The translations under genes were made by a program, and so were the position numbers. The notes under the pieces were generated by a model, which was given only the letters and a program-made list of their open reading frames with translations, made no database searches and was not told the DNA's origin. Shown in pieces: positions 30,086 through 64,000 of a DNA stretch of 64,000 nt (within the stretch, counting starts at the first letter, position 1; the number at the start of each line of letters is the position of its first letter). The DNA comes from a bacterium (lineage in GTDB: Bacteria; JAMCPX01), in NCBI GenBank assembly GCA_021787665.1, contig JAJYLN010000007.1:10135-74134 (forward strand), in the 5' to 3' direction.

Positions 30086-33000
30086 TTGATTCATTTATTA
30101 AATACAACCATGAAATTTAATAAATCGTACAGAACATGCGACATCTATCATGGCGTCTATAAAATCAGTAAGCCCGAGGTGGGCGACGTAGTCATGAGGA
30201 GACGACTCTTCCGAATACTGGATAGCTTCAGGTCAAAGCCCGTCATCTGGCTGTCCGGCGTGCCGGGTGCCGGCAAGACGATACTCGCGGTCAGCTACTT
30301 GAACAGCCGCAAAATTCCGTACCTGTACTATCGCATGGAGGGGAGCGACACGGACCTTGCCACGTTCTTCTATTATCTGGGTATGGCGCTGGGGAATGCC
30401 CGATCCGGCAAGACACCTTTTGGACGATATAGCGGAACACGCGCCGGACAACTCGCCAGTCTGCCGCTCCTCACGCCCGAATACCGACTGGACGTCCCTG
30501 CATTCACCCGGTGGTTCTTTAACGAGTTCTACGGCATGATAGGGCACGAGAAAAGACTGGTTATCGTCTTCGACAATTATCAGGAAGTGCCCGCAGACTC
30601 CATGCTCCACGCCGTGATCGGCGAAGGGCTCTCGATGCTCCCCGAGGACGTGCACGCTGTCATAATAAGCAAAGGCGATCCGCCCCCGGCGTTTACGCCG
30701 CTGCGCATGGGCAACAAGATGGGGTTCGTCACGGACAAAGAGGTCCGGTTCACCCTGCCCGAGACCGTGGGCCTGCTGCACCGCATGGGGATAGTCCGTC
30801 CCGGTACGTCCGGATCGAAACAATTCCACGAGATGGCCGAGGGATGGGCGGCGGGTCTGGTTCTGCTGACGGAGGAATACAGAAGGGTGCCGGCCCAGCA
30901 AAAGCCATCGCTGCCCGACAAGGCGCTCCTATCGGAAAGATTGTTCGGCTACTTTGCGGACCACATCTTCGGCCGGCTGGACAAAGAATTGCAGGACTTT
31001 CTGCTGAGGACGTCTTTTCTGACGAAGGTAACGGCCGCGGCGGCCAGGGAGATGACCGGCGCAAAGCACCCGGAAGACATACTCGGCTATCTTCACCGGA
31101 ACAACTACTTCACGGTCAAGCTCGCGTCCCCGGAGCCCGCATACCACTACCACTCGCTCTTCCGGGAATTCTTGCTGTCACACGCGAGAGCGACTTTTAC
31201 CGAAGACGAGCTCCGCTCCGTCATGGCGCAGGCGGCCCGGCTCCTCGCCCAGTCTGGAGAGTTCGAAGAGGCGGCGAAGCTACTGGCGCGCGCGGGCGCA
31301 TGGCCCGATTTCACAAGTCTCGTCGTTGCCCATGCGCCTTCACTGCTCGCGCAGGGACGCAACCAGGTCCTGATACAATGGTTCAAACAAATGGATCAGA
31401 AGGCGGTTGCAGGAAATCCGTGGCTGCTGTACTGGTACGGTCTTTCGATATTCCCCTTCTCGCTGCCGGAGAGCCGCGCGTACCTCGAAAAGGCCTTTGC
31501 ATTGTTCAAAGAGCAGTCCGATGAAAACGGCATCTACCTGTCCTGGGCGAACGTCGTAAGGACGTACTGTATCGAATGGAACAGCTTTAAGCCGATCGAC
31601 AGCTGGCTCGACACGATAAACGGCTTCCTCGAACGCGTACCGCTGCCCCCGGGTGAGTCGGGGACCTACTTTATCTCGGTTATGCTTCTTGCACTGCTCT
31701 ATCGCAGGCCAAAATACGAAGACATAGCGCCGTGGCTCCTGCGTGCAGAGGAGATCGTGCTGTCCGGCAAAGGCACAGACATGCGTACCAGGATTATGAT
31801 CGGCAGCTACCTGATGCTATATTACTCGTGGACCGGGGATATCTCTAAAATGGAAGTCCTGATGAACACGCTCAGACCGCCGTTCAGGCATTACGACACG
31901 CGGAAGGACACGGCAAGGTCCACCGCAGACGGGCAGGGAACCATAACGCCACTCGATATGATCCAGTGGCAGATCGTCGAGTCTATATATGCATGGCAGA
32001 CGCTCTCCGCGGAAATCTCCTCTGCCATCGAAACGGGCATCGGCATAGCGAATAGCTACGGCCTGCACCTGTGGGACCACATACTGTATTCGCAGGGCGT
32101 ATATTATGCCCTCAGCGTCAACGACATGCCTGCCGCGGGCATGTATTTAGACAAGATGTCGAAGGGGGTAAACGTCAATAGTCTGGTGGACTGCTCGCAT
32201 TTTTATTATCTGAAGAGCTGGTACAGCCACGCGCAGGGCAAGCTGCCCCTGGCGATCGAATATGGAGAGAGCGCCCTGCGGAACGCAGTTCAGGCGGGCG
32301 CTGTCTTCCCGGAGATCCTATGCAGGCTCGGACTTGCACGGGTACAAACTGCGGCCGGCAATTACGGAAAGGCGCGCGAAAACGCCGCGCGTGCGGAAAG
32401 GCTCTCGCGCGACATGCGGTGCATCATGGGACAATGCTATTACCATTTGCTGGAAGCCCAGATCGCGTTCGAGCGGGGCGATGAAGAGCGTGGCATCGAG
32501 TCACTGCGGCAGGGCATGAAGATAGGGAGGGAACAGGGATACATCAACAACTGGCGCTGGATGCACGAACCCATGCTCTTCCTGTGTCTGCGAGCACTCC
32601 GGTACAGCATCGAAGTACCGTATGTGCGCATGCTCATCAAGAGGCGCGGCCTCTTGCCGGACCCCCGCTCACTCGACAGGTACGGCATCGATTCCCTGTC
32701 CGATGTAGAAAACTGGCCGTGGACGCTGGACATACGTACCCTCGGCGGCTTCGAGCTTATCAAAGAGGACGACGACGGCAAGCCTGTCGAGTCCCCTGTC
32801 CAGGGCAAGGTGCAAAAGATGCCGCTCGCCTTGCTCAAGGTGGTGATCGCCTCCGGCGGCACGGATGTACGGGAAGAGTCCGTCGTGGACGCACTTTGGC
32901 CCGAGGCGGAAGGCGATAGGACGCACACCGCCTTCTCCACGACCTTGCAGCGTCTCAGGCAGCTTATGGGCAGCGAGAGATGCATCAGGCTCAAAGAAGG

Positions 33001-33481
33001 CCGATTGTCCCTCGACCCGCTGGAGTGCAGGCTCGACGTATGGGAATTCGACCGCCTTCTCGACAAGGCCGACGCGCTGTGGAAGCACGACAGGGACAAG
33101 GCCGTCGGGCTGATAGACAAGGCCGTCGGGCTTTACCGAGGAGGCTTTTTGCCTGAAGACGTCGGCGCGGGGTGGACTACCTCCATGAGGGAGCGCATGA
33201 GGAGCAAGTTCATTCGCGCCCTCCACAGACTTGGGCATTACTGTGAAGAGCAGGGCGCATACGACAAAGCAGCAGGGGACTACACAAAGGGGCTCGAAGC
33301 GGACGACCTGTCCGAGGAGTTCTACCAGTCCCTCATGTTGTGCTACCATGCGATGGGCAGAGACGCGGAGGCTCTCTCGGTCTACCGCACGTGCCGACGT
33401 ATCCTGCATGACGTTCTGAACATAGCGCCTTCCTCGAAGACCGAGTCCATCTACCGGGACATCAAGAGCGCCCCCCAATAA
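30086..33481 (+). CDS. STAND-type transcriptional regulator: MalT-like NTPase + helical/TPR-like sensor region + C-terminal OmpR-type winged helix and BTAD (inverted SARP architecture)
   Basis: Walker A GVPGAGKT and Walker B VIVFDNY at the N-terminus, then an EGWAAGLVL MalT-like motif. The C-terminal ~260 aa match the SARP wHTH plus BTAD pattern (ALLKVVIASGG...DALWPE...TLQRLRQ...WEFDRLL...LYRGGFLPE...EAL.VYR.CR..L...L...P). Alternative start at 30110 (MKFNKS). Confidence 0.7.
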   Translation: MIHLLNTTMKFNKSYRTCDIYHGVYKISKPEVGDVVMRRRLFRILDSFRSKPVIWLSGVPGAGKTILAVSYLNSRKIPYLYYRMEGSDTDLATFFYYLGMALGNARSGKTPFGRYSGTRAGQLASLPLLTPEYRLDVPAFTRWFFNEFYGMIGHEKRLVIVFDNYQEVPADSMLHAVIGEGLSMLPEDVHAVIISKGDPPPAFTPLRMGNKMGFVTDKEVRFTLPETVGLLHRMGIVRPGTSGSKQFHEMAEGWAAGLVLLTEEYRRVPAQQKPSLPDKALLSERLFGYFADHIFGRLDKELQDFLLRTSFLTKVTAAAAREMTGAKHPEDILGYLHRNNYFTVKLASPEPAYHYHSLFREFLLSHARATFTEDELRSVMAQAARLLAQSGEFEEAAKLLARAGAWPDFTSLVVAHAPSLLAQGRNQVLIQWFKQMDQKAVAGNPWLLYWYGLSIFPFSLPESRAYLEKAFALFKEQSDENGIYLSWANVVRTYCIEWNSFKPIDSWLDTINGFLERVPLPPGESGTYFISVMLLALLYRRPKYEDIAPWLLRAEEIVLSGKGTDMRTRIMIGSYLMLYYSWTGDISKMEVLMNTLRPPFRHYDTRKDTARSTADGQGTITPLDMIQWQIVESIYAWQTLSAEISSAIETGIGIANSYGLHLWDHILYSQGVYYALSVNDMPAAGMYLDKMSKGVNVNSLVDCSHFYYLKSWYSHAQGKLPLAIEYGESALRNAVQAGAVFPEILCRLGLARVQTAAGNYGKARENAARAERLSRDMRCIMGQCYYHLLEAQIAFERGDEERGIESLRQGMKIGREQGYINNWRWMHEPMLFLCLRALRYSIEVPYVRMLIKRRGLLPDPRSLDRYGIDSLSDVENWPWTLDIRTLGGFELIKEDDDGKPVESPVQGKVQKMPLALLKVVIASGGTDVREESVVDALWPEAEGDRTHTAFSTTLQRLRQLMGSERCIRLKEGRLSLDPLECRLDVWEFDRLLDKADALWKHDRDKAVGLIDKAVGLYRGGFLPEDVGAGWTTSMRERMRSKFIRALHRLGHYCEEQGAYDKAAGDYTKGLEADDLSEEFYQSLMLCYHAMGRDAEALSVYRTCRRILHDVLNIAPSSKTESIYRDIKSAPQ

Positions 33482-46895: not shown

Positions 46896-47037
46896 GGTAT
46901 CCAGAAACCGGCAGCTTTGTCAATCAGACACCGTGACGGAACTCTAGGGCAAAAGCTCACAACAAAATAGTTGAATTTATCTCAAACCTACCCTACTATA
47001 TATGAACAGAAGTACAAAATACATGAGGAGGAGCATT

Positions 47038-47571
47038 ATGAATATCCGGATAACCTTCAGACACATCCCTTCATCGAGTGCTTTGAAACAATACGCCGTA
47101 GAAAAGGTCACGAAGCTCATCAAGACACTGAAGGAGCCCGTTGAGGTCCATATCATCTTTACGCAGGAAAAGAAGGCCAACACCGTCGAGATGACGCTCA
47201 CTTCCGCAGGCAAAGAGCTCTACGCAAAAGAACGAGGCCTGGATATGTATGCAGCCATCGATCTCATATATGACAAGCTCGACAAACAGCTTACAAAATT
47301 GAAAGAGAAGAAAAAGAAGCATACCGGGAATACCTCGATGAAGCACCTGCAGCAGGAAGAGACAACGGAGGAAGAAGACGAGGTCAAGGTAATACCGGAA
47401 AAGGACTACTTCGTAAGGCCCATGACGACAGAGGAGGCCGTGCTGCAGCTCGATCTGTCGGAGAACCCCTTCATCGTCTATCTCGATGCCGGGGACGAGC
47501 GGATCAATGTGGTTTTCAAGAGGAGCGACGGCCACTACGGGCTCATCGAAACAGGTGCCAAGTACAGGTAG
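47038..47571 (+). CDS. hpf: Ribosome hibernation promoting factor (long form, sigma54 modulation protein family)
   Basis: MNIRITFRHI N-terminus, 177 aa with a C-terminal dimerisation extension. RBS GAGGAGG 7 nt upstream of the ATG at 47038. Confidence 0.85.
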   Translation: MNIRITFRHIPSSSALKQYAVEKVTKLIKTLKEPVEVHIIFTQEKKANTVEMTLTSAGKELYAKERGLDMYAAIDLIYDKLDKQLTKLKEKKKKHTGNTSMKHLQQEETTEEEDEVKVIPEKDYFVRPMTTEEAVLQLDLSENPFIVYLDAGDERINVVFKRSDGHYGLIETGAKYR

Positions 47572-48103
47572 AAAGAGAGTCTCCGAACGTATACACGGCG
47601 TCCTCGTGTCGGTAAAGGACGTCGGCGTTCTTATAACCGGGAAGAGCGGCATCGGCAAGAGCGAGTGTGCCCTGGAGCTCATCATACGGGGGCACAAGCT
47701 CGTTGCTGATGACCTCGTGGTTGTAACAAGGCGCGGACACATGCTGTTCGGGAGGTCCGATCCGCTCATCAGCGGTTACCTCGAGCTGCACGGCCTCGGC
47801 GTGATCAAGGTGAGCTCGCACTTCGGCAAAGGGGCAACGCGCCCGCAGAAGCGGGTGGATATGGTCGTCGATTTCATCGAGTGGGGCGAGTCGAGCCACG
47901 CCCGGGGCTTCCTGAAATCCTTTACCTATGACCTCCTGGGACAAAGGCTGCCGTTGATCACACTGCCGGTACGGCCTGCACGCAACATGGCATCGCTCGT
48001 CGAGGTTGCCGTTACGAGTTTCCTGCTGAGGAAACGCGGCATGAACGAGTCGAAAGATCTTGAACAGAGAGTCTCGAAGAGTATAAGAAGGGACCATGGA
48101 TAG
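47486..48103 (+). CDS. hprK: HPr kinase/phosphorylase, short form (C-terminal kinase domain only); start uncertain
   Basis: HGVLVSVKDVGVLITGKSGIGKSE P-loop and the ELHGLGVI motif. The ORF-track ATG start lies inside hpf. Alternative starts are ATG 47507 or GTG 47606. Confidence 0.75.
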   Translation: MPGTSGSMWFSRGATATTGSSKQVPSTGRKRVSERIHGVLVSVKDVGVLITGKSGIGKSECALELIIRGHKLVADDLVVVTRRGHMLFGRSDPLISGYLELHGLGVIKVSSHFGKGATRPQKRVDMVVDFIEWGESSHARGFLKSFTYDLLGQRLPLITLPVRPARNMASLVEVAVTSFLLRKRGMNESKDLEQRVSKSIRRDHG

Positions 48104-48971
48104 CAAACAGCCGCTGAACATCATTATTGTCACGGGCATGTCCGGCTCAGGCAAGACGACCGCCATGGCCGTGCTCGAAGACATGGGCTTCTTCTGCATT
48201 GACAACATCCCGGTCCAGCTCATGCAGAAGTTTATCGAGCTGGTAGCCGACTCGAAGGACGACATCCACAACCTTGCCTTCTCCGTGGACGTGCGCGGGA
48301 GGGGGTTCCTTGCCGGACTTTCCGACGCTCTGGGCGTTCTGAGGGCCGCACAGAACAAGGTCACCATTATCTTCCTCGATTCCAGCGATAGCGTGCTCCT
48401 GAAACGTTATAGCGAGACGCGCAGGAGGCACCCGCTTGCACACGACATCACCATCGAGGAGGGCGTCACGCTCGAGAGGAAGTACCTCGAGGAACTCAAG
48501 GCGCAGGCAGACCGCATCATAGACACTTCCAGCTTCACGGTACACGACCTGAAGAATGAAATGAAGCTCTTCCTCCGTGAATCCGCAAAGGCCAGACCCA
48601 TGACCATCATACTCCAGTCCTTCGGCTACCGGTTCGGCGTACCGGCAGACTCAGATATCGTGTTCGACGTACGGTTCCTGAAGAACCCGTACTTCGTACC
48701 GGAACTGAAACATTTTACAGGACTGGACCAATGTGTCATCGATTATGTGAGGAACGATAGCATGACTGCCCGGTTCATCGACATCGTCAGGACGTTCATG
48801 GAGTTTACCGTGCCCCTCTACTACGCCGAGGGCAAGAGCTATCTGACCATATCATTCGGGTGCACGGGCGGGAAGCACAGGTCGGTAACGATCGTGGAGG
48901 AAGCGAAAAAAATCATATCTGCCCTGGGCTATACGCCGGTCATCAAGCACAGGGACATCGAAAAGGAGTAG
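48096..48971 (+). CDS. rapZ: RNase adapter protein RapZ (YhbJ/YvcJ P-loop ATPase)
   Basis: LNIIIVTGMSGSGKTTA Walker A. Conserved position after hprK. Confidence 0.85.
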   Translation: MDSKQPLNIIIVTGMSGSGKTTAMAVLEDMGFFCIDNIPVQLMQKFIELVADSKDDIHNLAFSVDVRGRGFLAGLSDALGVLRAAQNKVTIIFLDSSDSVLLKRYSETRRRHPLAHDITIEEGVTLERKYLEELKAQADRIIDTSSFTVHDLKNEMKLFLRESAKARPMTIILQSFGYRFGVPADSDIVFDVRFLKNPYFVPELKHFTGLDQCVIDYVRNDSMTARFIDIVRTFMEFTVPLYYAEGKSYLTISFGCTGGKHRSVTIVEEAKKIISALGYTPVIKHRDIEKE

Positions 48972-48974
48972 ACC

Positions 48975-49382
48975 ATGGTTGGAATCGTTATCGTGGCCCA
49001 CGGACAGTTCGCGAGCGAACTGCTGGCAACGACCGAGTTCATTGTCGGCAAGAAGGACTATATTACATCGGTCATGACGGACCCCAAGCAATCCGTGGAG
49101 GACCTGCGGGAATCGATATCTGCCGCAATCAAGAGGGTAGACAGGGGCAAAGGCACCCTCATCCTCACGGACATGTTCGGAGGCACGCCATCGAACATAA
49201 GTCTCTCCTTCCTTAACGAAGGAAAGGTGGAGGTCCTTGCCGGCGTCAACCTTCCGATGCTCATAAAGCTCGCGTCCATGAACACCAGAATACCCGTCAA
49301 AGATCTCGCCAATATGATAAAAGAGTACGGCAAGCAAAACATCATCCTCGCCGGGGACGTCCTCAACAGAGCGGACCAATGA
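48975..49382 (+). CDS. PTS EIIA component, mannose/fructose/sorbose family
   Basis: 135 aa. MVGIVIVAHGQFASEL with the phosphorylatable His in the AHG motif. Confidence 0.8.
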   Translation: MVGIVIVAHGQFASELLATTEFIVGKKDYITSVMTDPKQSVEDLRESISAAIKRVDRGKGTLILTDMFGGTPSNISLSFLNEGKVEVLAGVNLPMLIKLASMNTRIPVKDLANMIKEYGKQNIILAGDVLNRADQ

Positions 49383-49648
49383 AAAAGGGCGACTTCGTCA
49401 TCAGTAACAAACTGGGCTTTCATGCAAGGGCGGCAGCGAAATTCGTGAAGGTAGCGAACGCGTACGAGTCAGAAATCTTTGTCTACAAGAATGGCGAGAG
49501 GGCGAACGGCAAGAGCATACTCGGTCTGCTGACGCTCGCGGCGAGAAACGGGACCGTGTTCACGATAACCGTGGATGGCAGGGACGAGGGTAAGGCGCTC
49601 ATCGCCTTGAAATGCCTGATTGAAGACAAGTTCGGCGAAGGCCAATGA
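49379..49648 (+). CDS. ptsH: Phosphocarrier protein HPr
   Basis: 89 aa. The GFHARAA motif contains His15. Regulatory Ser region GKSILG. Confidence 0.85.
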   Translation: MKKGDFVISNKLGFHARAAAKFVKVANAYESEIFVYKNGERANGKSILGLLTLAARNGTVFTITVDGRDEGKALIALKCLIEDKFGEGQ

Positions 49649-51366
49649 CGACTTATCTCAAGGGCATTGCTATTTCACCAGGCTGGGCGAGCGGCAGGGC
49701 GATCGTGCCGATCGGAAGCTTCGACGTCCTCCGATACCATGTCACAGCGGACATGGTACCGGCAGAGATAAACAGGTTCCTTGCCGCCTTAGAGAAATCC
49801 AAGGCGGAGATCAAGGCGCTGTCGGAGAAGATCGATCCGGTGACCGGCAAAGAAGCGCTCCTGATACTCGACATGCACACCATGATTCTCGAGGACAAGA
49901 CCTTCATCGAGAACGTCGTGAGCAAGATAAGGACCAACGCGGTCAATACCGAATGGGCACTCACGGAGATCCTGAACGCCATTGAAAAAGCCTTCGACAG
50001 GATAGACGATGAGTACCTGAAAGAGAGAAAGTTCGACGTGACGCACGAGGGACGCAGGATCCTCAAGAACCTTTCCGGCCAGAAAGCAAGCGACGAGTCC
50101 GGAGAGCCCGGCATCATCGTCCTGTCCGCCTTCGCCATGCTCAACATGCCCTACCTGATGAAGGACAACATCAGGGGAATCGCACTCGAGACCGGCGGAC
50201 CAATATCACATCATGCCATCATCGCGCGTTCCCTGGGCATACCGGCCGTGGCGGGCATCAGGGGACTCACCGACAAAGTGGAGGACGGACGGAGCCTCTT
50301 GATTGACGGAGATAACGGCATTTTGATCATCGATCCTGAAATCGAGATCCTCAGCAAGTATCAGAAGACACGGACAAAGACGCAGGAGCCCGTGATAGTG
50401 CCAACGGCCCAGAACGGGGTACACACGAAAGACGGAGCGCCCGTCAGGATCATGGCAAACATAGAGTTTCTCGATGAAGCGCAGGACGCTTACGACGTGG
50501 GCGCGCAAGGCATAGGGCTCGTACGGACGGAGTATCTCTATACCGAAGGGGGGGCCCTTCCATCGGAGGAAGTGAGCTTTGCGAGCTATGCAACAATGGT
50601 GAAGCTCTTCAGGGGCTCTCCGGTCATCATACGGACCCTCGATATGGGGGGAGACAAGCTCTTCTCTACGACCTACAGGAGATCGGACAACCCCGCTCTC
50701 GGTCTGCGCGGCATACGGCTCTGCCTGAAGGAGCAGCATCTCTTCAGGGCACAGGTTCGGGCGCTGCTGCGCGCGAGCTCCCACGGCGAGATAGGCGTGT
50801 TGCTCCCGATGGTGTCCTCTCTCGGCGAGGTCCGGGAAGCGAAGAAGATTATAGAGGAGGAAAGGAGTGCACTCAGGGCGCAGGGTACGGCGATTGGCAC
50901 GATAAAACTCGGGGTACTCGTAGAGACTCCGGGAGCGGCAATGATCGTGGACATCCTGTCACGGGAGGTGGACTTTATCAGCGTCGGCACGAACGATCTG
51001 ATCCAGTACATCATGGCCATCGACCGCGGGGACGAGGACGTCCTGTACCTCTATCAGCCGATGCATCCGGCCGTCCTCAAAGCGCTCTCCCTTATAGCGG
51101 ACCAGGCGGTACAGCGCGGACTTCCTGTTCATATATGCGGCGAGATGGCAGGCGTGCCGCTCTACATTCCCCTGCTGATAGGCATGGGGTTCAGGGACCT
51201 GAGCATGGGCATATCAGCCATCAGCAGGGTACGGCGGTTCATATACCTGATCGACAGCCGAAATGCACGGAACCTTGCTGACGCCGCCCTCAAGCTCTCG
51301 ACCGCCGAAGAGGTGGAGAACCTGATCTTGGACAGCTACGCGCGGGAGCTATCGTATGAAGCTTGA
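49645..51366 (+). CDS. ptsI: Phosphoenolpyruvate-protein phosphotransferase (Enzyme I)
   Basis: 573 aa. Phospho-His motif GGPISHHAIIARSLGIPAV and a C-terminal PEP-utilising TIM barrel (GTNDLIQY). Confidence 0.9.
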   Translation: MTTYLKGIAISPGWASGRAIVPIGSFDVLRYHVTADMVPAEINRFLAALEKSKAEIKALSEKIDPVTGKEALLILDMHTMILEDKTFIENVVSKIRTNAVNTEWALTEILNAIEKAFDRIDDEYLKERKFDVTHEGRRILKNLSGQKASDESGEPGIIVLSAFAMLNMPYLMKDNIRGIALETGGPISHHAIIARSLGIPAVAGIRGLTDKVEDGRSLLIDGDNGILIIDPEIEILSKYQKTRTKTQEPVIVPTAQNGVHTKDGAPVRIMANIEFLDEAQDAYDVGAQGIGLVRTEYLYTEGGALPSEEVSFASYATMVKLFRGSPVIIRTLDMGGDKLFSTTYRRSDNPALGLRGIRLCLKEQHLFRAQVRALLRASSHGEIGVLLPMVSSLGEVREAKKIIEEERSALRAQGTAIGTIKLGVLVETPGAAMIVDILSREVDFISVGTNDLIQYIMAIDRGDEDVLYLYQPMHPAVLKALSLIADQAVQRGLPVHICGEMAGVPLYIPLLIGMGFRDLSMGISAISRVRRFIYLIDSRNARNLADAALKLSTAEEVENLILDSYARELSYEA

Positions 51367-57338: not shown

Positions 57339-57884
57339 TTACGACGGTGTTGTTGTTAAATAATATTTTATATCGTAAGCCATGTTATACAGGGAATTCG
57401 AAAGCTGTCCGGAAAAAGACATATTGGAAAAACCGCCATAGGGGTTGTATGAAATGGGCGACGGTTCTTCGAGCCTCCGGTAGAGCAGTTTTTTTGTCCC
57501 TCCGTCATAGAAGCTCATCTCGCACTGAAGCTGGTTCCCGATTAATGACACTTTAGAGAACACTATGACCAAGGTATGAGGAGCCCATGGAATGCGTGCA
57601 TATCTTGAGGCCGCGCCGATAACGTTCCACCCTTTCATATAGCTTCTGGTATATGACTGGAGCGAGTCGATGTTCTGCGTTTTTATTTCATCTAACCATT
57701 CTCCTTTTGTCCCGTAACCGAATTTCATCCAATGTTGCTCTCCGAGATCGAGCCAGCCCACATAAATTTTGTTGAATTTCTGATATTGCTCGCTGACTCG
57801 GACAGGCCCGCACCCAGCCGTCATACTTGTCAAAACCATTCCGATAATCCCAAAGGCCACATACCTGTTAAATCTGCTCTTCAT
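57339..57884 (-). CDS. Hypothetical lipoprotein (low-GC gene), divergent from the ACP operon
   Basis: Lipobox MTAGC after a signal peptide. No recognisable domain. Markedly AT-rich compared with its neighbours. Internal start MKSRFNRY preferred. Confidence 0.5.
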   Translation of the reverse strand: MKSRFNRYVAFGIIGMVLTSMTAGCGPVRVSEQYQKFNKIYVGWLDLGEQHWMKFGYGTKGEWLDEIKTQNIDSLQSYTRSYMKGWNVIGAASRYARIPWAPHTLVIVFSKVSLIGNQLQCEMSFYDGGTKKLLYRRLEEPSPISYNPYGGFSNMSFSGQLSNSLYNMAYDIKYYLTTTPS

Positions 57885-58163
57885 GCTTACCTCCTTTTCT
57901 TGTTGTTTCACATGGTTAAACCCTGTAAACTTATTACATACAATACTATCAGTAACTTATGGTACCCGGTTCTCCGGGCTAAAGAGACCCCCTTCAGGGA
58001 TTACATGCACTATTAGCACAGTGGCTTTATAAGGAAAAGAAAAAAGTTTGAAACCTAAAACAGAGATCAACCGATGAAGCGGTCTCTCCTTTGTGCCACT
58101 TGACAAGGCATGGTATTTTTAATAGAAACTGCTCATACAAGCTTGTAACAATGAGGAGATAGC

Positions 58164-58454
58164 ATGGTATCAAACACCAAAAGCGTGACCGTTCAGGACA
58201 TCGAGAGAAGGGTCAGCGAGATATTTATCAATGAGCTCAAGCTCGAGGATGTGACCCCGGAGACGTTGGACACGGAACTACATCTTATGGAAGAACTGGG
58301 AATAGACAGCATGGACCTCATAACCGTGGTACTGGTACTGAAGGACGAATTCTCCGTCAGCATAGAAGAGGCGGATTACCCCAAACTGACCAATATCCGG
58401 CTCATAGCCGAGTACATCAAGGAGAAAATGGAACATGGAAGAAGTGCGGCCTGA
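58164..58454 (+). CDS. Acyl carrier protein 1
   Basis: 96 aa. LGIDSMDL phosphopantetheine attachment motif (DS*) in a four-helix-sized protein. Confidence 0.8.
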   Translation: MVSNTKSVTVQDIERRVSEIFINELKLEDVTPETLDTELHLMEELGIDSMDLITVVLVLKDEFSVSIEEADYPKLTNIRLIAEYIKEKMEHGRSAA

Positions 58455-58767
58455 AAAAGCCTCAATCGGAAAATCATCGAACGGGAAAGCGTCGATCGGA
58501 TCATCACCAATCGAAAAATTGATCGATGAGCTGAAAAAAAAGGTCCTCGATATCCTCAATATCCAGGACGTGAGTCTCAGTGATATAGACAGCAACGCAC
58601 CGATGGTGGGGAACGAGCTCGGCATAGATTCCATCGACATTCTGGAACTGGTCACCGTCATCGAGCAGGATTATGGCGTGAGGATCGACAACAAAGAGTT
58701 GGGCCGGAAGGTGTTTGCCTCATTTACTTCTCTCGCACAATATATAGCTGACCACAGAACCAGTTGA
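58435..58767 (+). CDS. Acyl carrier protein 2 (tandem ACP) with a short KASIG tandem duplication at the N-terminus
   Basis: LGIDSIDILEL attachment motif. The N-terminus contains the repeat KASIGKSSNG/KASIGSSPIE. Confidence 0.75.
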   Translation: MEEVRPEKASIGKSSNGKASIGSSPIEKLIDELKKKVLDILNIQDVSLSDIDSNAPMVGNELGIDSIDILELVTVIEQDYGVRIDNKELGRKVFASFTSLAQYIADHRTS

Positions 58768-58778
58768 ATGTGCCTGTA

Positions 58779-60968
58779 ATGTCGTCTGAAGGCATTTTCA
58801 TCACGGGCCTCGGCATCATCAGTCCTCTGGGGAGAGGACTCCCTTCGACGATCCATGCGCTAAAAAATCCGGTTTCGGGTATCCACAGCGCCGACCTTTT
58901 CAACGTTGCCGTCGATCAGATCATGCCGGTGGCCGATGTCACGGTACCGTTTCCGACCGAGCCCGGCGTCCCGAGGACGCATGCATTGGCGCTCGTTGCG
59001 GCACGCGATGCGATGGAAGGTCGAAAAGCCCCTCCGGATGCTATCGTTATCGGGGTCACCACCGGGGGCATGCCGAAGAGCGAGCAATTGCTCGGCTCGA
59101 AGATCGTGTCGCCGCAGGAATATGTGTACCATGGGGCCGGGACCGTGGCGACATACCTCGCAGAGCACGTATCGTGTACCGGACCGGCCTTCACCCTATC
59201 GACCGCGTGTTCAAGCGGTACCGCGGCCATCAAGATCGCCCTGGAGATGCTCAGGCGGGGAAAGGCAAAGAGCGTGCTCGTCGGAGGAGCAGATGCGTTG
59301 TGCAGGTTTACCTACTTTGGCTTTTTCTCGCTCCAGCTCATAGACCCCAAGGGCGCACGGCCTCTCGACAGGGACAGAGCCGGCATATCACTCGGCGAAG
59401 GAGCGGCAATGCTCCTGCTCGAGAGTGCACCGACGCCCCCCCAGGGCTCCATCGCTCAGATCCTGGGCGGTGGCATCTCCTGCGATGCGTACCATCCGAC
59501 AGCACCGCATCCGAAAGGAGAAGGTGCCCTGAAGGCCATGCAGGACGCCATAGCAGACGCGGGCATCCGGGCAGTTGATATCGGCTATATAAACCTTCAC
59601 GGCACGGCAACACTGGACAATGACGCGTCCGAAGCAACAGCACTCAGGACATTGTATCTCGACCGTATCCCCTCGGTGTCATCCACCAAAGGGATGACCG
59701 GCCATTCGCTCGGTGCAGCAGGCGCGGTCGAATGCGCGATAAGTGCATTGTCCGTTTCCGAGGAACTGATCCCGGCCAATACCGGGTGCGTGAACCCGGA
59801 CGCTTCACTGGGGCTGCCCGTCGTATTGAAACCGGAAAGCCGTCCTGTGAAGATTGCACTGTCGAACTCCTTCGGCTTCGGCGGCAATAATGCTGCCGTG
59901 GTGATCGGTTCCGTGGACCTACCGGTGCCGGTCCGTCAGAGGACATGCCCCATGAGCCTGCAGGTCACGGGTCTTGCCTGCCTGACCGGCAGCGGTGGCA
60001 CGGATGACTCTTTCCAGAAATTCTCACAGGGCGTTCATGTTACCGGCGTCCTGAGCGATGAGGAGGTCTCAAAGGACCTGCCCCAGCGTCAGGTACGCCG
60101 CCTCAAGAGGACCTCCCGCATGGCACTCGCCCTGGCCACGGCGGCACGCAAGGACGCCGGAGGAAGTGATTGTCCGTCCTCGGTCTTCTTCGGGACAGGA
60201 TGGGGCCCCCTGACCGAGACATACGATTTCCTTACCAAGCTCTTCGGGTCCGATATGAAATTTTCCAGTCCTACGGACTTCATCAATTCCGTGCACAATG
60301 CACCCGCAGGACAGGTCGCCATGGAGCTCAAGGCACACGGCGCCAATATCACGGCAACAGGCGGCGATTATTCCTTCGAGCAGGCCCTGTTTATTGCGAG
60401 CCTCCTGACGTCCGAAAAAGATAATCTGCTCCTCCTCGGCGCGGACGAGATGCATCCGGAACTGTCTCTTCTGTTCGATCCATCGTCGGCAGGCGACACC
60501 ACCCCTTCGGACGGCGGCGGCGCGATTATGGCGGTGGCGACAGACTCCCCGGAAGGTCCTGCGATCACGCCGGTCGCGTACCGGATGGCGCCGGGGAATA
60601 CCGGCTCTGCACCCATGATTGACCCCGGGATCATAAAAGATATCGACAGGCGTTATGGCGCGCTCTTTGTCGGAATCCCCCTTGCATACGAAGTGGCGGC
60701 AAGGGCCCAGGTAAAAAGTTTCCTTACGTACTCCAAGTTCAGCGGGCCTGTAGTCGATTACAGAAAGTACACGGGACAGTATGCTACGTCCGCCGCCGTT
60801 GCGACCGTCCTTGCTGTGAAAGCGATCAAACGGGGATCCCTTCCCGCGATCCTGACCGGTAAACAAGAAGTTTCCCTCAGCGGGAAAGGCATCCTGGTCA
60901 TGGGCTTCGGTCCTTATTGTACTGCTATCGATGTCCGTAACCATAACCGAGGTGTGCATGCCCCCTGA
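58779..60968 (+). CDS. Didomain beta-ketoacyl synthase: N-terminal KS (Cys-His-His triad) fused to a C-terminal KS-like/chain-length-factor-like domain lacking the nucleophilic Cys
   Basis: N-terminal domain has TACSSG (active Cys), CDAYHPTAP and NLHGTAT (catalytic His residues), and SFGFGGNNAAVV (KS C-terminus). The C-terminal ~340 aa are KS-fold-like, with ATGGDY at the position equivalent to the Cys. The ATG at 58779 overlaps the ACP2 stop. The ORF-track start is TTG 58764. Confidence 0.75.
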   Translation: MSSEGIFITGLGIISPLGRGLPSTIHALKNPVSGIHSADLFNVAVDQIMPVADVTVPFPTEPGVPRTHALALVAARDAMEGRKAPPDAIVIGVTTGGMPKSEQLLGSKIVSPQEYVYHGAGTVATYLAEHVSCTGPAFTLSTACSSGTAAIKIALEMLRRGKAKSVLVGGADALCRFTYFGFFSLQLIDPKGARPLDRDRAGISLGEGAAMLLLESAPTPPQGSIAQILGGGISCDAYHPTAPHPKGEGALKAMQDAIADAGIRAVDIGYINLHGTATLDNDASEATALRTLYLDRIPSVSSTKGMTGHSLGAAGAVECAISALSVSEELIPANTGCVNPDASLGLPVVLKPESRPVKIALSNSFGFGGNNAAVVIGSVDLPVPVRQRTCPMSLQVTGLACLTGSGGTDDSFQKFSQGVHVTGVLSDEEVSKDLPQRQVRRLKRTSRMALALATAARKDAGGSDCPSSVFFGTGWGPLTETYDFLTKLFGSDMKFSSPTDFINSVHNAPAGQVAMELKAHGANITATGGDYSFEQALFIASLLTSEKDNLLLLGADEMHPELSLLFDPSSAGDTTPSDGGGAIMAVATDSPEGPAITPVAYRMAPGNTGSAPMIDPGIIKDIDRRYGALFVGIPLAYEVAARAQVKSFLTYSKFSGPVVDYRKYTGQYATSAAVATVLAVKAIKRGSLPAILTGKQEVSLSGKGILVMGFGPYCTAIDVRNHNRGVHAP

Positions 60969-62433
60969 AGATCCTATAGTCATTATAGGTTCCGGTATCG
61001 GCGGCCTGACCGCTGCTATCATCCTCGCAAAGCTGGGCCATCGTGTGACTGTTGTGGAAAAGAACAAGCTGCCCGGCGGCCTGATGAGGAGCTATACCAG
61101 AAAGGGGATCGAATGCGAAGTAGGGATCCACTACATGGGCGCCCTAGACAAGGGTCAGCCTTTGCGCCAGATCTTCGACTTTATCGGGGTATCCGATCGT
61201 ATACCCCTCACGCGCATGGGCGAAGACGGGGTCGTCGATAAATACATCCTGCCCGGGATGGAGTTCGATTTCCCCGCGAGCATCGATCGATACGGAGAGA
61301 ACCTCCGTGAGGCCTTTCCGGATGAGGGCCGTCAAATAGCCGCAATTATCGCTGTTCTTCACGATGCGATCGGCCGGTTCGACAGCATGTCTATATTTTT
61401 GAAGGGGGAAACAAATTTCGACTTTGCCCGGGAACTGCGGCCCGCGGGCGATTATTTCAATGAACTGGGATGCTCCCTGGGGCTGCGCAGCATCCTGAGT
61501 GTTCCCCTGTCATTGATCGGCGTAGGACCCGATGAATGCCCCGTATATCTATGGAGTTCCTCGGTCTCTTCCTATCTGATGTCCTCGTGGAGGCTGACAC
61601 GCGGGGGCGCACATATGGCGGATACCTTCGCAGAGAGGCTGCGTGAGCTCGGTGGAGAAATCATCTGCAATGACGGGGTATCGAAGATCCTCGTACAGAA
61701 CCGCGCTGTCCGTGGCGTAGCCTTGAAGTCCGGAAGGGAGCTTGTCTCTCCCACGATCATATCGGCCATCCATCCAAAGCTGATGCTCGGTCTGCTATCC
61801 GACGATTCTTATAAGCCTTCCTTTAAAAACAGGATCCTATCTCTCCAGGAAACGCCCGGGATTTTCGCAACCCATGTAGCGGTCCCCGAAGATGAGCTTC
61901 CTTTAAGGCCGTACAATATCTTCATCCTGAACGAGGCCGCGGACAAGTACGAGGTAGTGACATTTCTTAACATGAAGAAATCACCCGAACCCGGCTGGAA
62001 CACACTGTCCATCCTGGGAGGGAGCCCGTACGAGCAATGGCGCACATGGGAGCACACGACGAGAGGGCAGCGACCCCGTGAATACAAAGAGGCGAAGGCC
62101 CGCGAGGCCGCTGTTCTCTTTGATAGGGCCCTAAAGCTTTTCGGGCCCCTCCACCGGGCACGGGTCGTAGACTCCTTTACGCCCCTGTCGTTTGTAGACT
62201 GGATGGGGAGTCCGGAAGGTGGCGCCTATGGCGTACGCCGATCGACGACACAGAAGTTCAAGACCGCTGCACTGCACCGTACGCCGCTAACAGGGCTGCA
62301 TGCAGTCGGGCAGAGCGTCTTCGCCCCGGGCATACTGGGTACGGCGCTGGGGACCCTGCGGGTACTCGCCCCTCTGGTGGGATATGAAACGCTCCGTCAG
62401 AAATTTATTGACTCAGGTATAGAAGGAATTTAA
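60958..62433 (+). CDS. FAD-dependent oxidoreductase, phytoene desaturase (CrtI)/amine-oxidase-like family
   Basis: N-terminal dinucleotide-binding motif IVIIGSGIGGLTAAIILAKLGHRVTVVEKN...GG. ~490 aa. Start overlaps the KS stop by 11 nt. Confidence 0.7.
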   Translation: MPPEDPIVIIGSGIGGLTAAIILAKLGHRVTVVEKNKLPGGLMRSYTRKGIECEVGIHYMGALDKGQPLRQIFDFIGVSDRIPLTRMGEDGVVDKYILPGMEFDFPASIDRYGENLREAFPDEGRQIAAIIAVLHDAIGRFDSMSIFLKGETNFDFARELRPAGDYFNELGCSLGLRSILSVPLSLIGVGPDECPVYLWSSSVSSYLMSSWRLTRGGAHMADTFAERLRELGGEIICNDGVSKILVQNRAVRGVALKSGRELVSPTIISAIHPKLMLGLLSDDSYKPSFKNRILSLQETPGIFATHVAVPEDELPLRPYNIFILNEAADKYEVVTFLNMKKSPEPGWNTLSILGGSPYEQWRTWEHTTRGQRPREYKEAKAREAAVLFDRALKLFGPLHRARVVDSFTPLSFVDWMGSPEGGAYGVRRSTTQKFKTAALHRTPLTGLHAVGQSVFAPGILGTALGTLRVLAPLVGYETLRQKFIDSGIEGI

Positions 62434-62450: not shown

Positions 62451-64000
62451 ATGACGAAGAAACATACACGAAACACGTCGTCACAAAAGCCGGTTGTCAT
62501 AGGAGAAGGCGATCTTACGCCGGCGCAGGTCGTCGCCATCGCCCGTGGCAAGGAGAGGGTACGCATCAGCACGAACAAGGACTTTACCGGCAGGATGAAG
62601 CGGTCGCAAAAGATACTCCAGCACGCGCTCGACGCCGGCGAGCCGGTTTATGGAGTAACCACCGGGTACGGAGCTGCGTGTGGCAATAGGATCCAGAAGC
62701 ATAAAACCGAGGAACTCGGGAGCAACCTCATCAAGTACCACGGATGCGGCACCGGTGAGCCGTTGGGCGTAGAAGAGGTGCGTGCGTCCCTGATGTGCAG
62801 GCTCGCGTGCTTCGCACAGGGACATTCCGGGGTGTCCGTCAACCTGCTGCAAGCCCTTGCGGACTTCCTCAACAAAGGCATAACACCGGTCGTACCTTCC
62901 CTCGGCTCTGTCGGCGCATCCGGGGACCTCACCCCTATGTCATACATCGCCGCCTGCCTGTCCGGAGACAGGGAGGTCCTGTATAAAGGACGGCGAATGC
63001 ACTCCCGGAACGCTCTGTCTCTGGCAGGCCTGTCTCCCTACCGCTTTCTTCCGAAAGAGCCGCTCGGCATGATGAATGGAACTTCCGTTATGACCGGGAT
63101 CGCGGCCCTTGTTCTGGACAAAAGTAGGGTCATAGCAGATGCTGCACTCGCAGCTACGGCACTCTCGCTCCATGCCATCATAGGACACGAGCGGCACTTC
63201 CATTCGGCGGTGGTCAACTCGAAGCCCCATCCCGGACAGCACAGCACCGGCGAGCGGCTGCGGGGCCTTCTGGCCTGCGTGGACTGTCCTCCGGAATCCG
63301 GCAGGGAAAATGATCTGCAAGACCCTTATTCCACACGCTGCGCCCCGCAGATCCTCGGCGTCGTGTACGATGCCTTCGAATGGATCGGGCAATGGGTCCA
63401 CCGGGAGATAAACAGCTCCAACGACAATCCGCTGTCCGACGGCGACAACGAAGAGGTCTTCATGGGCGGCAATTTTTACGGCGGTCACATAGCATACGCC
63501 ATGGACGCCCTGAAGAGCGCGCTGGCATCGGTCGCAGACATGGCTGACCGACAGATGGCCCTGCTGGTCGATCCCCGGTACAACCGGGGTCTCCCGGCAA
63601 ACCTCGTGAAGGTGAAGGGTGACAAACAGCCCCTGCACCACGGGTTCAAGGGTATGCAGATCACCGCCTCGGCACTTACGGCAGAAGCCCTGAAGAACAC
63701 CATGCCCGCGGCATCGTTCTCCAGATCAACCGAGTCCCATAACCAGGACAAGGTGAGCATGGGCACGATCGCCGCACGGGACGCTTCGCGGCAATGCGAC
63801 CTCGTCAGCAGGGCTGTGGCCATCCATCTCATGGCAGCGGTCCAGGCATGCGAGCTGCGCGGTAATCTGGACAGGAGACCTGCACTGGCGTCCCTGGTAA
63901 AAGAGGTCAGAAAGGTGGTAAAGGAGACGGTCTTCGACCGCCCCATGGACAGGGACATCGAGGCCCTCGTAGGCGCGCTGCCGGACGTGGTACGATCCGT
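62451..64000 (+). CDS. Aromatic amino acid ammonia-lyase (HAL/PAL/TAL family, MIO cofactor), 3'-truncated by window end
   Basis: Not in the ORF track because there is no stop before the window end. Manual translation from ATG 62451 gives ...GVTTGYGA...GSVGASGDLTPMSYIAA... with the Ala-Ser-Gly MIO-forming triad, and continues ...NDNPL...FYGGHIAYAMD... for 516 aa. Confidence 0.8.
   Translation, partial: MTKKHTRNTSSQKPVVIGEGDLTPAQVVAIARGKERVRISTNKDFTGRMKRSQKILQHALDAGEPVYGVTTGYGAACGNRIQKHKTEELGSNLIKYHGCGTGEPLGVEEVRASLMCRLACFAQGHSGVSVNLLQALADFLNKGITPVVPSLGSVGASGDLTPMSYIAACLSGDREVLYKGRRMHSRNALSLAGLSPYRFLPKEPLGMMNGTSVMTGIAALVLDKSRVIADAALAATALSLHAIIGHERHFHSAVVNSKPHPGQHSTGERLRGLLACVDCPPESGRENDLQDPYSTRCAPQILGVVYDAFEWIGQWVHREINSSNDNPLSDGDNEEVFMGGNFYGGHIAYAMDALKSALASVADMADRQMALLVDPRYNRGLPANLVKVKGDKQPLHHGFKGMQITASALTAEALKNTMPAASFSRSTESHNQDKVSMGTIAARDASRQCDLVSRAVAIHLMAAVQACELRGNLDRRPALASLVKEVRKVVKETVFDRPMDRDIEALVGALPDVVRS

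Follow-up and report, generated by a model that had tools for sequence, protein, structure and literature searches.

A single-chain ketosynthase/chain-length-factor-like protein and its fused relatives in Desulfobacterota and Spirochaetota

Within a 64,000-nucleotide stretch of bacterial DNA (assembly GCA_021787665.1, contig JAJYLN010000007.1, positions 10,135 to 74,134 of the forward strand; hereafter the window), we analyzed a gene whose product, referred to here as KS-CLF, comprises one active ketosynthase (KS) and one inactive KS-fold partner resembling a chain-length factor (CLF) in a single chain. We consider it probable that this protein is a natural single-chain KS/CLF heterodimer of a highly reducing, aryl polyene (APE)-like type II polyketide synthase (PKS) or fatty acid synthase (FAS). 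KS and CLF occur as discrete proteins encoded by adjacent separate genes in described type II PKS and APE systems, whereas KS-CLF is specified by a single open reading frame (ORF) and is fused in all close relatives. The core of the original prediction made from this DNA, namely that an active KS is fused to a Cys-less CLF-like domain, is borne out by domain scans, by Protein Data Bank (PDB) matches of each half, by a structural model and by the conservation of the fusion. The gene and its parts, from the ORF list and its translation, are as follows.

58779 to 60968, plus strand: fused KS-CLF gene, 729 amino acids (aa) from an ATG start, plus the stop codon (60966 to 60968)
58779 to 59912, plus strand: N-terminal active KS half, residues 1-378, PF00109 and PF02801
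59208 to 59210, plus strand: codon of Cys144
59598 to 59600, plus strand: codon of His274
59688 to 59690, plus strand: codon of Lys304
59703 to 59705, plus strand: codon of His309
59913 to 59954, plus strand: inter-domain linker of about 14 residues, approximately residues 379-392, alignment columns about 401-420
59955 to 60965, plus strand: C-terminal CLF-like half, residues 393-729, about 337 aa, with the Asp530 codon at 60366 to 60368

Translation of 58779 to 60968 yields one terminal stop and no internal stop, and the opposite strand is riddled with stops. The original prediction had described a 734-aa polypeptide at these positions; the single uninterrupted ORF stands, but the coordinates correspond to 729 aa, and 734 aa are obtained only from an upstream TTG at 58764. 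Database gene calls and all homologues begin at the ATG and not at the TTG, and a database copy (P0001) that is 100% identical and 729 aa long is present on two assemblies. The sequence motifs noted previously were located as TACSSG (Cys144), AYHPT (His239), HGTAT (His274) and ATGGDY (residues 526-531), and the presence of a second KS-fold domain in the same frame after the N-terminal KS is upheld by a PF13723 match and by a complete fold in the model described below.

An artefact in which adjacent KS and CLF genes became joined through a frameshift introduced in sequencing or assembly, or through a lost stop, would be in keeping with the gene order of the described type II and APE systems, and the linker is the starting point of two short gene calls, P0133 (335 aa) and P0148 (324 aa). 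These two proteins, however, share 90%-identity clusters with fused members of 724 aa and 711 aa and so most likely have mis-called starts. Furthermore, two assemblies of this organism both contain the fused ORF, 115 aligned homologues share the fusion with a linker that is conserved in length and variable in sequence, and a locus scan using one genome per GTDB species confirmed at least 585 fused KS-CLF loci in many orders of two phyla, Desulfobacterota and Spirochaetota. These fused copies across assemblies, homologues and genomes effectively refute the merged-gene explanation, to which we assign a negligible probability, and no in-frame stop interrupts the chain.

The best 80 of the at least 585 loci come from Desulfobacterales, Syntrophales, Desulfocapsaceae, Desulfosudis oleivorans, Desulfatiglandales, Desulfomonilia, Spirochaetota and Leptospirales. 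Among database relatives, the best 120 have lengths of 695-743 aa, show 48-74% identity over 94-100% of the query, and without exception carry PF00109, PF02801 and PF13723. A search with the C-terminal half alone against 1.84 billion cluster representatives returned 2345 matches at E <= 0.001, 99 of them at E <= 1e-30. When the best 150 of these matches were analyzed together with five cluster members, two levels became apparent: above approximately 100 bits are 48 full fused proteins and otherwise obvious fragments, after which scores drop sharply; from 91 bits downwards, stand-alone proteins appear in full length, with 313-357 aa and 25-31% identity. Fusion is therefore the rule in this family, and with respect to the earlier question of whether relatives are fused or split, all close relatives are fused and the split state is confined to distant stand-alone CLFs. 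The description of the architecture as unusual thus holds relative to described type II PKS and APE systems but not within this large Desulfobacterota and Spirochaetota family, and PfaC, discussed below, provides a precedent. Fused KS-CLF proteins are already abundant in public databases under generic names, and our searches of open-access literature turned up no paper on this fused type II-like family.

In the N-terminal half, the Pfam ketoacyl-synthase N and C domains (PF00109 and PF02801) span residues 67-335 of KS-CLF. No NCBIfam model claims the protein; the best, the KS subfamily PRK09185, scores 307 bits against a cutoff of 407 over residues 6-378 only, and fabF models match this half below their cutoffs. 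PDB sequence searches with the N-terminal half returned 6qsp_A as the best match (E 9.5e-56), followed by 9s5h_B and by 7f28_B, the last from a structure that we take to be of Acinetobacter origin. The catalytic triad of FabF consists of Cys163, His303 and His340, with Lys335 in addition. The equivalents of Cys163, His303, Lys335 and His340 in KS-CLF are Cys144, His274 (HGTAT), Lys304 and His309 (TGHSLG), and all four residues are invariant across the 115 homologues. A full triad had been proposed on the basis of TACSSG, YHPT and HGTAT. The triad is complete, but His239 of the YHPT motif, which is conserved, lies outside it and the third member is His309; because His309 is invariant, the full-triad conclusion stands. 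Judged from these residues and matches, the N-terminal half is a FabF/ApeO-type KS equipped with every catalytic residue of a condensing enzyme.

The C-terminal half is matched by PF13723 (Ketoacyl-synt_2) at residues 432-562 (E 4e-13), such that a domain scan of the whole chain assigns PF00109 and PF02801 to the first half and PF13723 to the second. Its conserved motifs are VRRLKR, SPTDFxxSVHNAPAGQ, NxT...SFEQAL, GADE and SDGGGA. We aligned the N and C halves of the family in two ways, by profile-profile comparison with hhalign and with MAFFT, and both methods pair GPAFTLSTACSSG with GANITATGGDYSF; Cys144 therefore corresponds to Asp530, and Thr142-Ala143 to Gly528-Gly529. The earlier assignment of the Gly-Gly of ATGGDY to the nucleophile site is thus replaced, as hhalign and MAFFT agree in placing Asp530 at this position. 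Arg662 takes the place of Lys304 and Gln667 that of His309, while the counterpart of His274 is approximately Gly632, which falls in a low-confidence region read partly from the predicted strand-helix pattern. By these alignments and the checked translation, no member of the triad is retained in the C-terminal half. Asp530 is conserved in at least 90% of relatives at 48% identity or above; in the wider fused family clustered at 50%, the nucleophile position is Asp in 26 of 48 proteins and Asn, His, Glu or Ala in the rest. Aromatic (actinorhodin-type) CLFs have a conserved Gln at the KS nucleophile position, which is found neither here nor among the residues seen across the wider fused family.

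Searched alone as a single sequence, the C-terminal half matched 9s5h_C (1.5e-6), 6qsp_B (6.7e-5, phmmer) and 7f28_A in the PDB. A profile built from C halves together with stand-alone relatives (profile A3) ranked 6kxd_B (1.1e-14), 6qsp_B (7.8e-14) and 9s5h_C (7.2e-13) as its top three PDB matches, with ordinary FabF proteins ranking lower, and it also found 7f28_A and the AntE chain 6smo_C (6.1e-7). At E <= 0.01, no actinorhodin-type CLF is among the matches of this profile, AntE being the only CLF from an aromatic system. Because the profile ranks CLF chains first, we conclude that this half is homologous to the CLF subunits found in highly reducing type II PKSs. In the comparison with ApeO/ApeC that the original prediction had proposed, each half of KS-CLF matches one chain of the same heterodimers (6qsp, 9s5h and 7f28). 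Collectively, these data show that the KS fold of the C-terminal half is complete but catalytically inactive, and that this half is a homologue of the CLFs that occur as separate proteins in ishigamide, APE and flexirubin-type systems. As a separate observation, chains B and C of 9s5h belong to a recently deposited heterodimer of two 412/413-aa chains named "3-oxoacyl-ACP synthase" and are the second-best single-sequence match of the N half and the best of the C half, respectively.

AlphaFold modelled the whole chain with a predicted local distance difference test score (pLDDT) of 93 and a predicted template modelling score of 0.95 from the alignment of 115 homologous sequences, compared to a pLDDT of 33 from the single sequence. 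Both halves of the model display the alternating strand/helix pattern of thiolases, the alpha/beta fold of the C-terminal half is complete over residues 393-722, and model confidence dips only at the linker (pLDDT 75, block 381-390) and in a loop near residues 601-620. The top Foldseek match in the PDB is 6riw, a single chain described as "PfaC Keto synthase-Chain length factor", which superimposes on the whole of KS-CLF with a query-normalised template modelling (TM) score of 0.80 (E 2.4e-43, 16% identity). The other matches, including the second-best, Iga11, many FabF structures and 7f28_B, cover one half only, with TM scores of approximately 0.49 normalised to the query and 0.85 to the target. 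Since 6riw matches the whole chain and ordinary KSs match a single half, the model reproduces, in a single chain, the way in which KS and CLF are arranged in a dimer. A KS/thiolase fold is thus present in the C-terminal half, and the pseudo-dimeric fold about which the original prediction had asked is modelled confidently, with the two halves predicted to pack as an intramolecular pseudo-heterodimer. The linker of about 14 residues would let the halves pack like the subunits of a KS dimer, and such packing would turn each polypeptide into an obligate 1:1 pseudo-heterodimer that has only one active site and in which the dead half is predicted to complete the substrate tunnel at the interface.

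The PfaC KS-CLF didomain (6RIW; Santin et al. 2020) is cited as carrying out the final chain elongation in the polyunsaturated fatty acid (PUFA) synthase of Moritella marina (PMC12895367). No other solved structure has KS and CLF in one chain in the same KS-then-CLF order, and the KS-CLF architecture is consequently not new in principle, since PfaC has it. PfaC differs in being part of a type I-like megasynthase with dehydratase (DH) domains and in having a didomain of about 920 residues as opposed to 729 here. We considered whether KS-CLF is a fragment or relative of such a type I iterative PUFA-synthase system, given that its best whole-chain structural match is this didomain and that Rattray et al. 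connect this deltaproteobacterial cluster class with polyunsaturated hydrocarbons (PMC2649909). This is very unlikely in our estimation: KS-CLF and 6riw are just 16% identical, neither sequence nor profile searches with the C-terminal half find PfaC whereas they do find type II CLFs, the protein stops after the CLF half without DH domains, the acyl carrier proteins (ACPs), thioesterase and other enzymes are discrete, and no pfaA, pfaB or pfaD-like genes lie in the window. Because of this low identity, and because the CLF of PfaC cannot be detected by sequence from the C-terminal half, the fusion most likely arose independently of PUFA synthases. An origin of the protein from PfaC was rejected for want of any sequence signal in the C-terminal half.

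Among two-protein systems, ApeO/ApeC (6QSP) is close to KS-CLF in that the N half is nearest to its KS chains and the C half matches its CLF chains, and in both cases there are a Cys-less partner and discrete ACPs. The APE KS/CLF structure comes from Xenorhabdus doucetiae and its CLF is very short, with ApeC measuring approximately 211-239 aa (PMC12664062) compared to the full thiolase fold of about 337 aa in the C half of KS-CLF. ApeO and ApeC are moreover two proteins, in contrast to the one polypeptide here, and identity in the C half is low. Iga11/Iga12 of ishigamide biosynthesis (6KXD) likewise combine highly reducing type II logic with an inactive partner, and Iga12 is the best profile match of the C half just as Iga11 is the second-best fold match; they differ in being separate actinomycete proteins, and the alignment is confined to the N-terminal portion of the C half (profile positions 37-222). 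The stand-alone CLFs of PF13723 (about 313-357 aa) match the C half from end to end (in P0250, query 4-306 aligned to 4-303) and share its RR, SxHN and NxT..SFExAL motifs; one of them, Xanthocytophaga WP_314509696, is named "beta-ketoacyl synthase chain length factor" by NCBI. In contrast to the fused family, they are encoded by separate genes, show 25-31% identity and have Tyr-x-Gln/His-Arg where the fused proteins have Thr-Gly-Gly-Asp.

The conservation of Asp530 raises the alternative of a tandem KS whose second domain has its own chemistry, either malonyl-ACP decarboxylation and priming through Asp530, by analogy with KSQ loading domains or with the Gln found in aromatic CLFs, or acyl transfer or docking. 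Besides the conservation of Asp530 in at least 90% of close relatives, the invariance of Arg662 and of the SVHN and SFE motifs would be compatible with this, as would our failure to find genes for a starter-loading AMP-ligase or a FabH-type KS III in the cluster. Tandem-KS proteins with one Cys-less domain are known from prodiginine biosynthesis (PigJ/RedX) and provide a precedent for two KS folds in one chain. The corresponding PigJ model (NF053555) is matched only weakly, however, with 73.9 bits where its cutoff demands 900, and the two domains come in the opposite order, since the active KS of KS-CLF aligns to positions 474-755 in the C-terminal half of PigJ. In addition, the nucleophile position varies in the wider fused family, both histidines required for decarboxylation are missing from the C half, and the nearest solved relatives of this half are non-catalytic CLFs. 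We thus regard a tandem KS of this kind as unlikely and favour a single-chain KS/CLF heterodimer.

KS-CLF is the third gene of a tight plus-strand operon that runs up to the edge of the window and, on the same contig (locus L001), is followed by a 4HBT thioesterase gene, a gene for a Dak2/FakA-like-DegV fusion and the contig end. The other genes of this group with listed positions are as follows.

58164 to 58454, plus strand: ACP1, 96 aa, phosphopantetheine-site motif GIDSMD, Pfam PP-binding (E 1.2e-7)
58435 to 58767, plus strand: ACP2, 110 aa, motif GIDSID, Pfam PP-binding (E 3.2e-7), overlapping ACP1 by 20 nucleotides (nt)
60958 to 62433, plus strand: flavin adenine dinucleotide (FAD)-dependent oxidoreductase of the phytoene-desaturase/CrtD/CrtISO superfamily, 491 aa, Pfam NAD_binding_8 and Amino_oxidase
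62451 to 64000, plus strand: 4-methylideneimidazole-5-one (MIO)-type aromatic amino-acid ammonia-lyase, 517 aa, PF00221, cut by the window edge 4 nt before the end of the stop codon
15645 to 17372 of locus L001: FakA-DegV fusion, 575 aa, about 1.6 kb past the window end, TIGR00762 at 148 bits against a cutoff of 99.7

NCBIfam ACP models match ACP1 below their cutoffs, and ACP2 is matched by NF006617 (PRK09184) at 70.6 bits against a cutoff of 70. The start of the FAD oxidoreductase gene overlaps the end of KS-CLF by 11 nt, is preceded by GAGG and is translationally coupled to it. CrtD and carotenoid-isomerase NCBIfam models match the oxidoreductase far below their cutoffs, and a homologous gene also lies directly after KS-CLF in loci L012, L024, L035, L036 and L055 and approximately 1.6 kb downstream in L074; the enzyme could act as a desaturase or saturase on the acyl chain. 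For the ammonia-lyase, NCBIfam models of tyrosine ammonia-lyase (TAL), histidine ammonia-lyase (HAL), phenylalanine ammonia-lyase (PAL) and aminomutase all score below cutoff, and its best PDB matches are cyanobacterial PAL, SgTAM and RsTAL, all ahead of Pseudomonas putida HAL. Its selectivity switch reads Tyr-His (NLIKYHGCG), which fits none of the known HL, FL and SH patterns. The FakA-DegV fusion, which joins a Dak2/FakA-like kinase part to a genuine DegV (FakB-like) domain, is in effect a single-chain fatty-acid kinase.

No gene for a ketoreductase (KR), DH, enoylreductase, AMP-ligase, LolA or MMPL protein was found in the 64-kb window, nor was a KR or DH gene found on the rest of the contig or at the orthologous loci with 72% identity. 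The only short-chain dehydrogenase/reductase seen in the 64-kb scan for KR, DH and PKS genes is unrelated (1126-2055), and the remainder is housekeeping: the rest of the window encodes complex I, DegP, ABC transporters, a Clp ATPase, LigA, PPDK, GlyQS, a set of phosphotransferase system (PTS), HPrK and RapZ genes, and TatC. APE clusters load their starter by means of an AMP-ligase. The clade of the window differs from them in having no KR, DH, LolA or MMPL gene nearby, no AMP-ligase, and an ammonia-lyase instead; the ApeQ-type KR and ApeI/ApeP-type DH characteristic of APE clusters are absent from this clade and present beside relatives of about 50% identity. As for APE export and acyltransferase genes, LolA and MMPL are likewise missing from the clade, a gene of the LPLAT family occurs in loci L065 and L086, and here the contig ends after the FakA-DegV gene.

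From these genes we propose a route in which an acyl or aryl-acyl primer carried on one of the two adjacent ACPs would be extended iteratively by decarboxylative Claisen condensation with malonyl-ACP, with the CLF half capping chain growth and the fusion enforcing 1:1 stoichiometry and preventing KS homodimers. In the clade of the window, the primer would probably derive from the arylacrylic acid produced by the co-transcribed PAL/TAL-like ammonia-lyase. The presence of the thioesterase, FakA-DegV and an LPLAT (PlsY in L003) suggests, as a conjecture, that the 4HBT thioesterase releases an acid, FakA-DegV re-activates it as an acyl-phosphate and a PlsC-type acyltransferase esterifies it to a glycerolipid. 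Because no KR or DH gene lies in the cluster, beta-keto processing might be borrowed from housekeeping FAS enzymes, or the CrtI-like flavoenzyme might adjust saturation.

Several points weigh against a polyene-forming single-chain heterodimer. The lack of KR, DH and AMP-ligase genes in the cluster of this clade means that the chemistry may not be polyene-like, and the strong conservation of Asp530 means that the "dead" half could be catalytic, for example in malonyl decarboxylation. The intramolecular packing is a prediction and not an experimental result, and a monomer model would equally fit a domain-swapped KS:KS homodimer whose C halves pack in trans. Neither the models nor the structures compared separate the possible substrates of the ammonia-lyase, and the starter, product and chain-length control proposed here are predictions.

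The orthologous loci at 72% identity (L002 and L086) contain the same seven genes as the operon described here, and a PlsC-type acyltransferase (LPLAT) gene lies slightly further downstream in L086 and L065. At 60% identity, L087 combines a B12-binding radical S-adenosylmethionine (SAM) enzyme, ACP, KS-CLF, FAD oxidoreductase, 4HBT, Dak2-DegV, LPLAT and a second KS with LolA and KR genes nearby on the opposite strand and an MMPL gene upstream, and in this way bridges the compact cluster to larger clusters. Relatives of 50% identity adjoin ApeP-like and ApeI-like dehydratases, KR, LolA, several ACPs, further KSs, PS-DH and sometimes PlsY, and also lie near B12/radical-SAM enzymes and a polysaccharide-deacetylase-like protein. 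In most relatives, L003, L004 and L087 among them, the fused gene is flanked by one to several B12-binding radical-SAM genes, by a gene for a polysaccharide-deacetylase-like protein and by conserved proteins that lack a Pfam match (of 366 aa and 246 aa in L003); L003 also has PlsY. A tblastn survey of 56 loci of at least 14 kb gave the following counts of neighbouring genes.

B12-binding radical-SAM enzyme: 46 of 56 loci
ApeI-like dehydratase: 40 of 56 loci
KR: 36 of 56 loci
LolA: 35 of 56 loci
ApeP-like dehydratase: 32 of 56 loci
4HBT thioesterase: 25 of 56 loci
Dak2-DegV: 17 of 56 loci
Polysaccharide-deacetylase-like protein: 17 of 56 loci
FAD oxidoreductase: 9 of 56 loci
Ammonia-lyase: 6 of 56 loci

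A sub-module of ammonia-lyase, 4HBT and Dak2-DegV, sometimes with LPLAT, recurs in the separate lineages L019, L039 and L049, and the FakA-DegV fusion is found in these three loci as well as in L002, L065, L086 and L087. The recurrence of this module beside fused KS-CLF genes suggests acyl-phosphate activation of the acid of the pathway.

In Kuenenia stuttgartiensis, Desulfotalea psychrophila, Geobacter and Pelobacter, Rattray et al. (2009) described type II FAS (FASII)-like clusters in which SAM-radical enzymes occur together with phytoene-dehydrogenase-like proteins and with divergent FabF paralogues that have no active-site Cys; these clusters were tied tentatively to polyunsaturated hydrocarbons and ladderanes (PMC2649909). 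These "ladderane-like" clusters share extra ACPs, Cys-less FabF paralogues, B12/radical-SAM enzymes, a polysaccharide-deacetylase-like protein and a phytoene-dehydrogenase-like flavoenzyme with the relatives of about 50% identity, and partly with the window, a likeness of gene vocabulary. In that description the Cys-less FabF paralogues are treated as separate proteins and no fusion is mentioned, and the clade of the window, unlike those clusters, has no radical-SAM gene. We put forward only tentatively, and with considerable doubt, the broader idea that fused KS-CLF is the signature enzyme of a large lipid or polyene pathway family of anaerobic Desulfobacterota and Spirochaetota related to the "ladderane-like" FASII clusters. 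For the compact variant we envisage an aryl-terminated acyl chain that would be made from PAL/TAL-derived arylacrylate without dedicated KR or DH enzymes, with the CrtI-like flavoenzyme setting its unsaturation and FakA-DegV activating the free acid as an acyl-phosphate for loading or lipid installation. Such a route is not known to have been described for type II PKS products.

KS/CLF pairs are what holds back the engineering of type II PKSs. According to a recent review, difficulties in expressing and purifying the heterodimers have kept the number of KS/CLF structures at three (PMC12664062). KS-CLF, a natural and widespread protein that holds both partners in one chain through about 14 linker residues, offers a ready-made design for covalently linking such pairs, and is probably a tractable protein for studying the structural and mechanistic basis on which an inactive half sets chain length. 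The gene also marks a very common cluster family in sulfate reducers, syntrophs and spirochaetes of anoxic sediments, and recognition of its core condensing enzyme as an APE-type KS/CLF narrows the search for the products of this family.

Directly upstream of the ACP genes, a divergent ORF (57339-57911, minus strand, 181-190 aa, no Pfam match), also called as a gene in the database copy, is separated from them by an AT-rich intergenic region (48% GC), and may encode an operon regulator or accessory protein. A promoter and terminator scan upstream of the operon returned nothing beyond shuffled expectation, and base composition gave no foreign-DNA signal. Approximately 25 kb from the cluster, at 30086-33481 on the plus strand, lies a gene for a large regulator, a 1131-aa tetratricopeptide-repeat protein with a C-terminal BTAD domain. 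At 47002-51366, also on the plus strand, are contiguous genes for hpf, a short HPr-kinase C-domain protein, RapZ, EIIA-Man, HPr and Enzyme I, a set of regulatory PTS-type genes typical of Desulfobacterota-like genomes.

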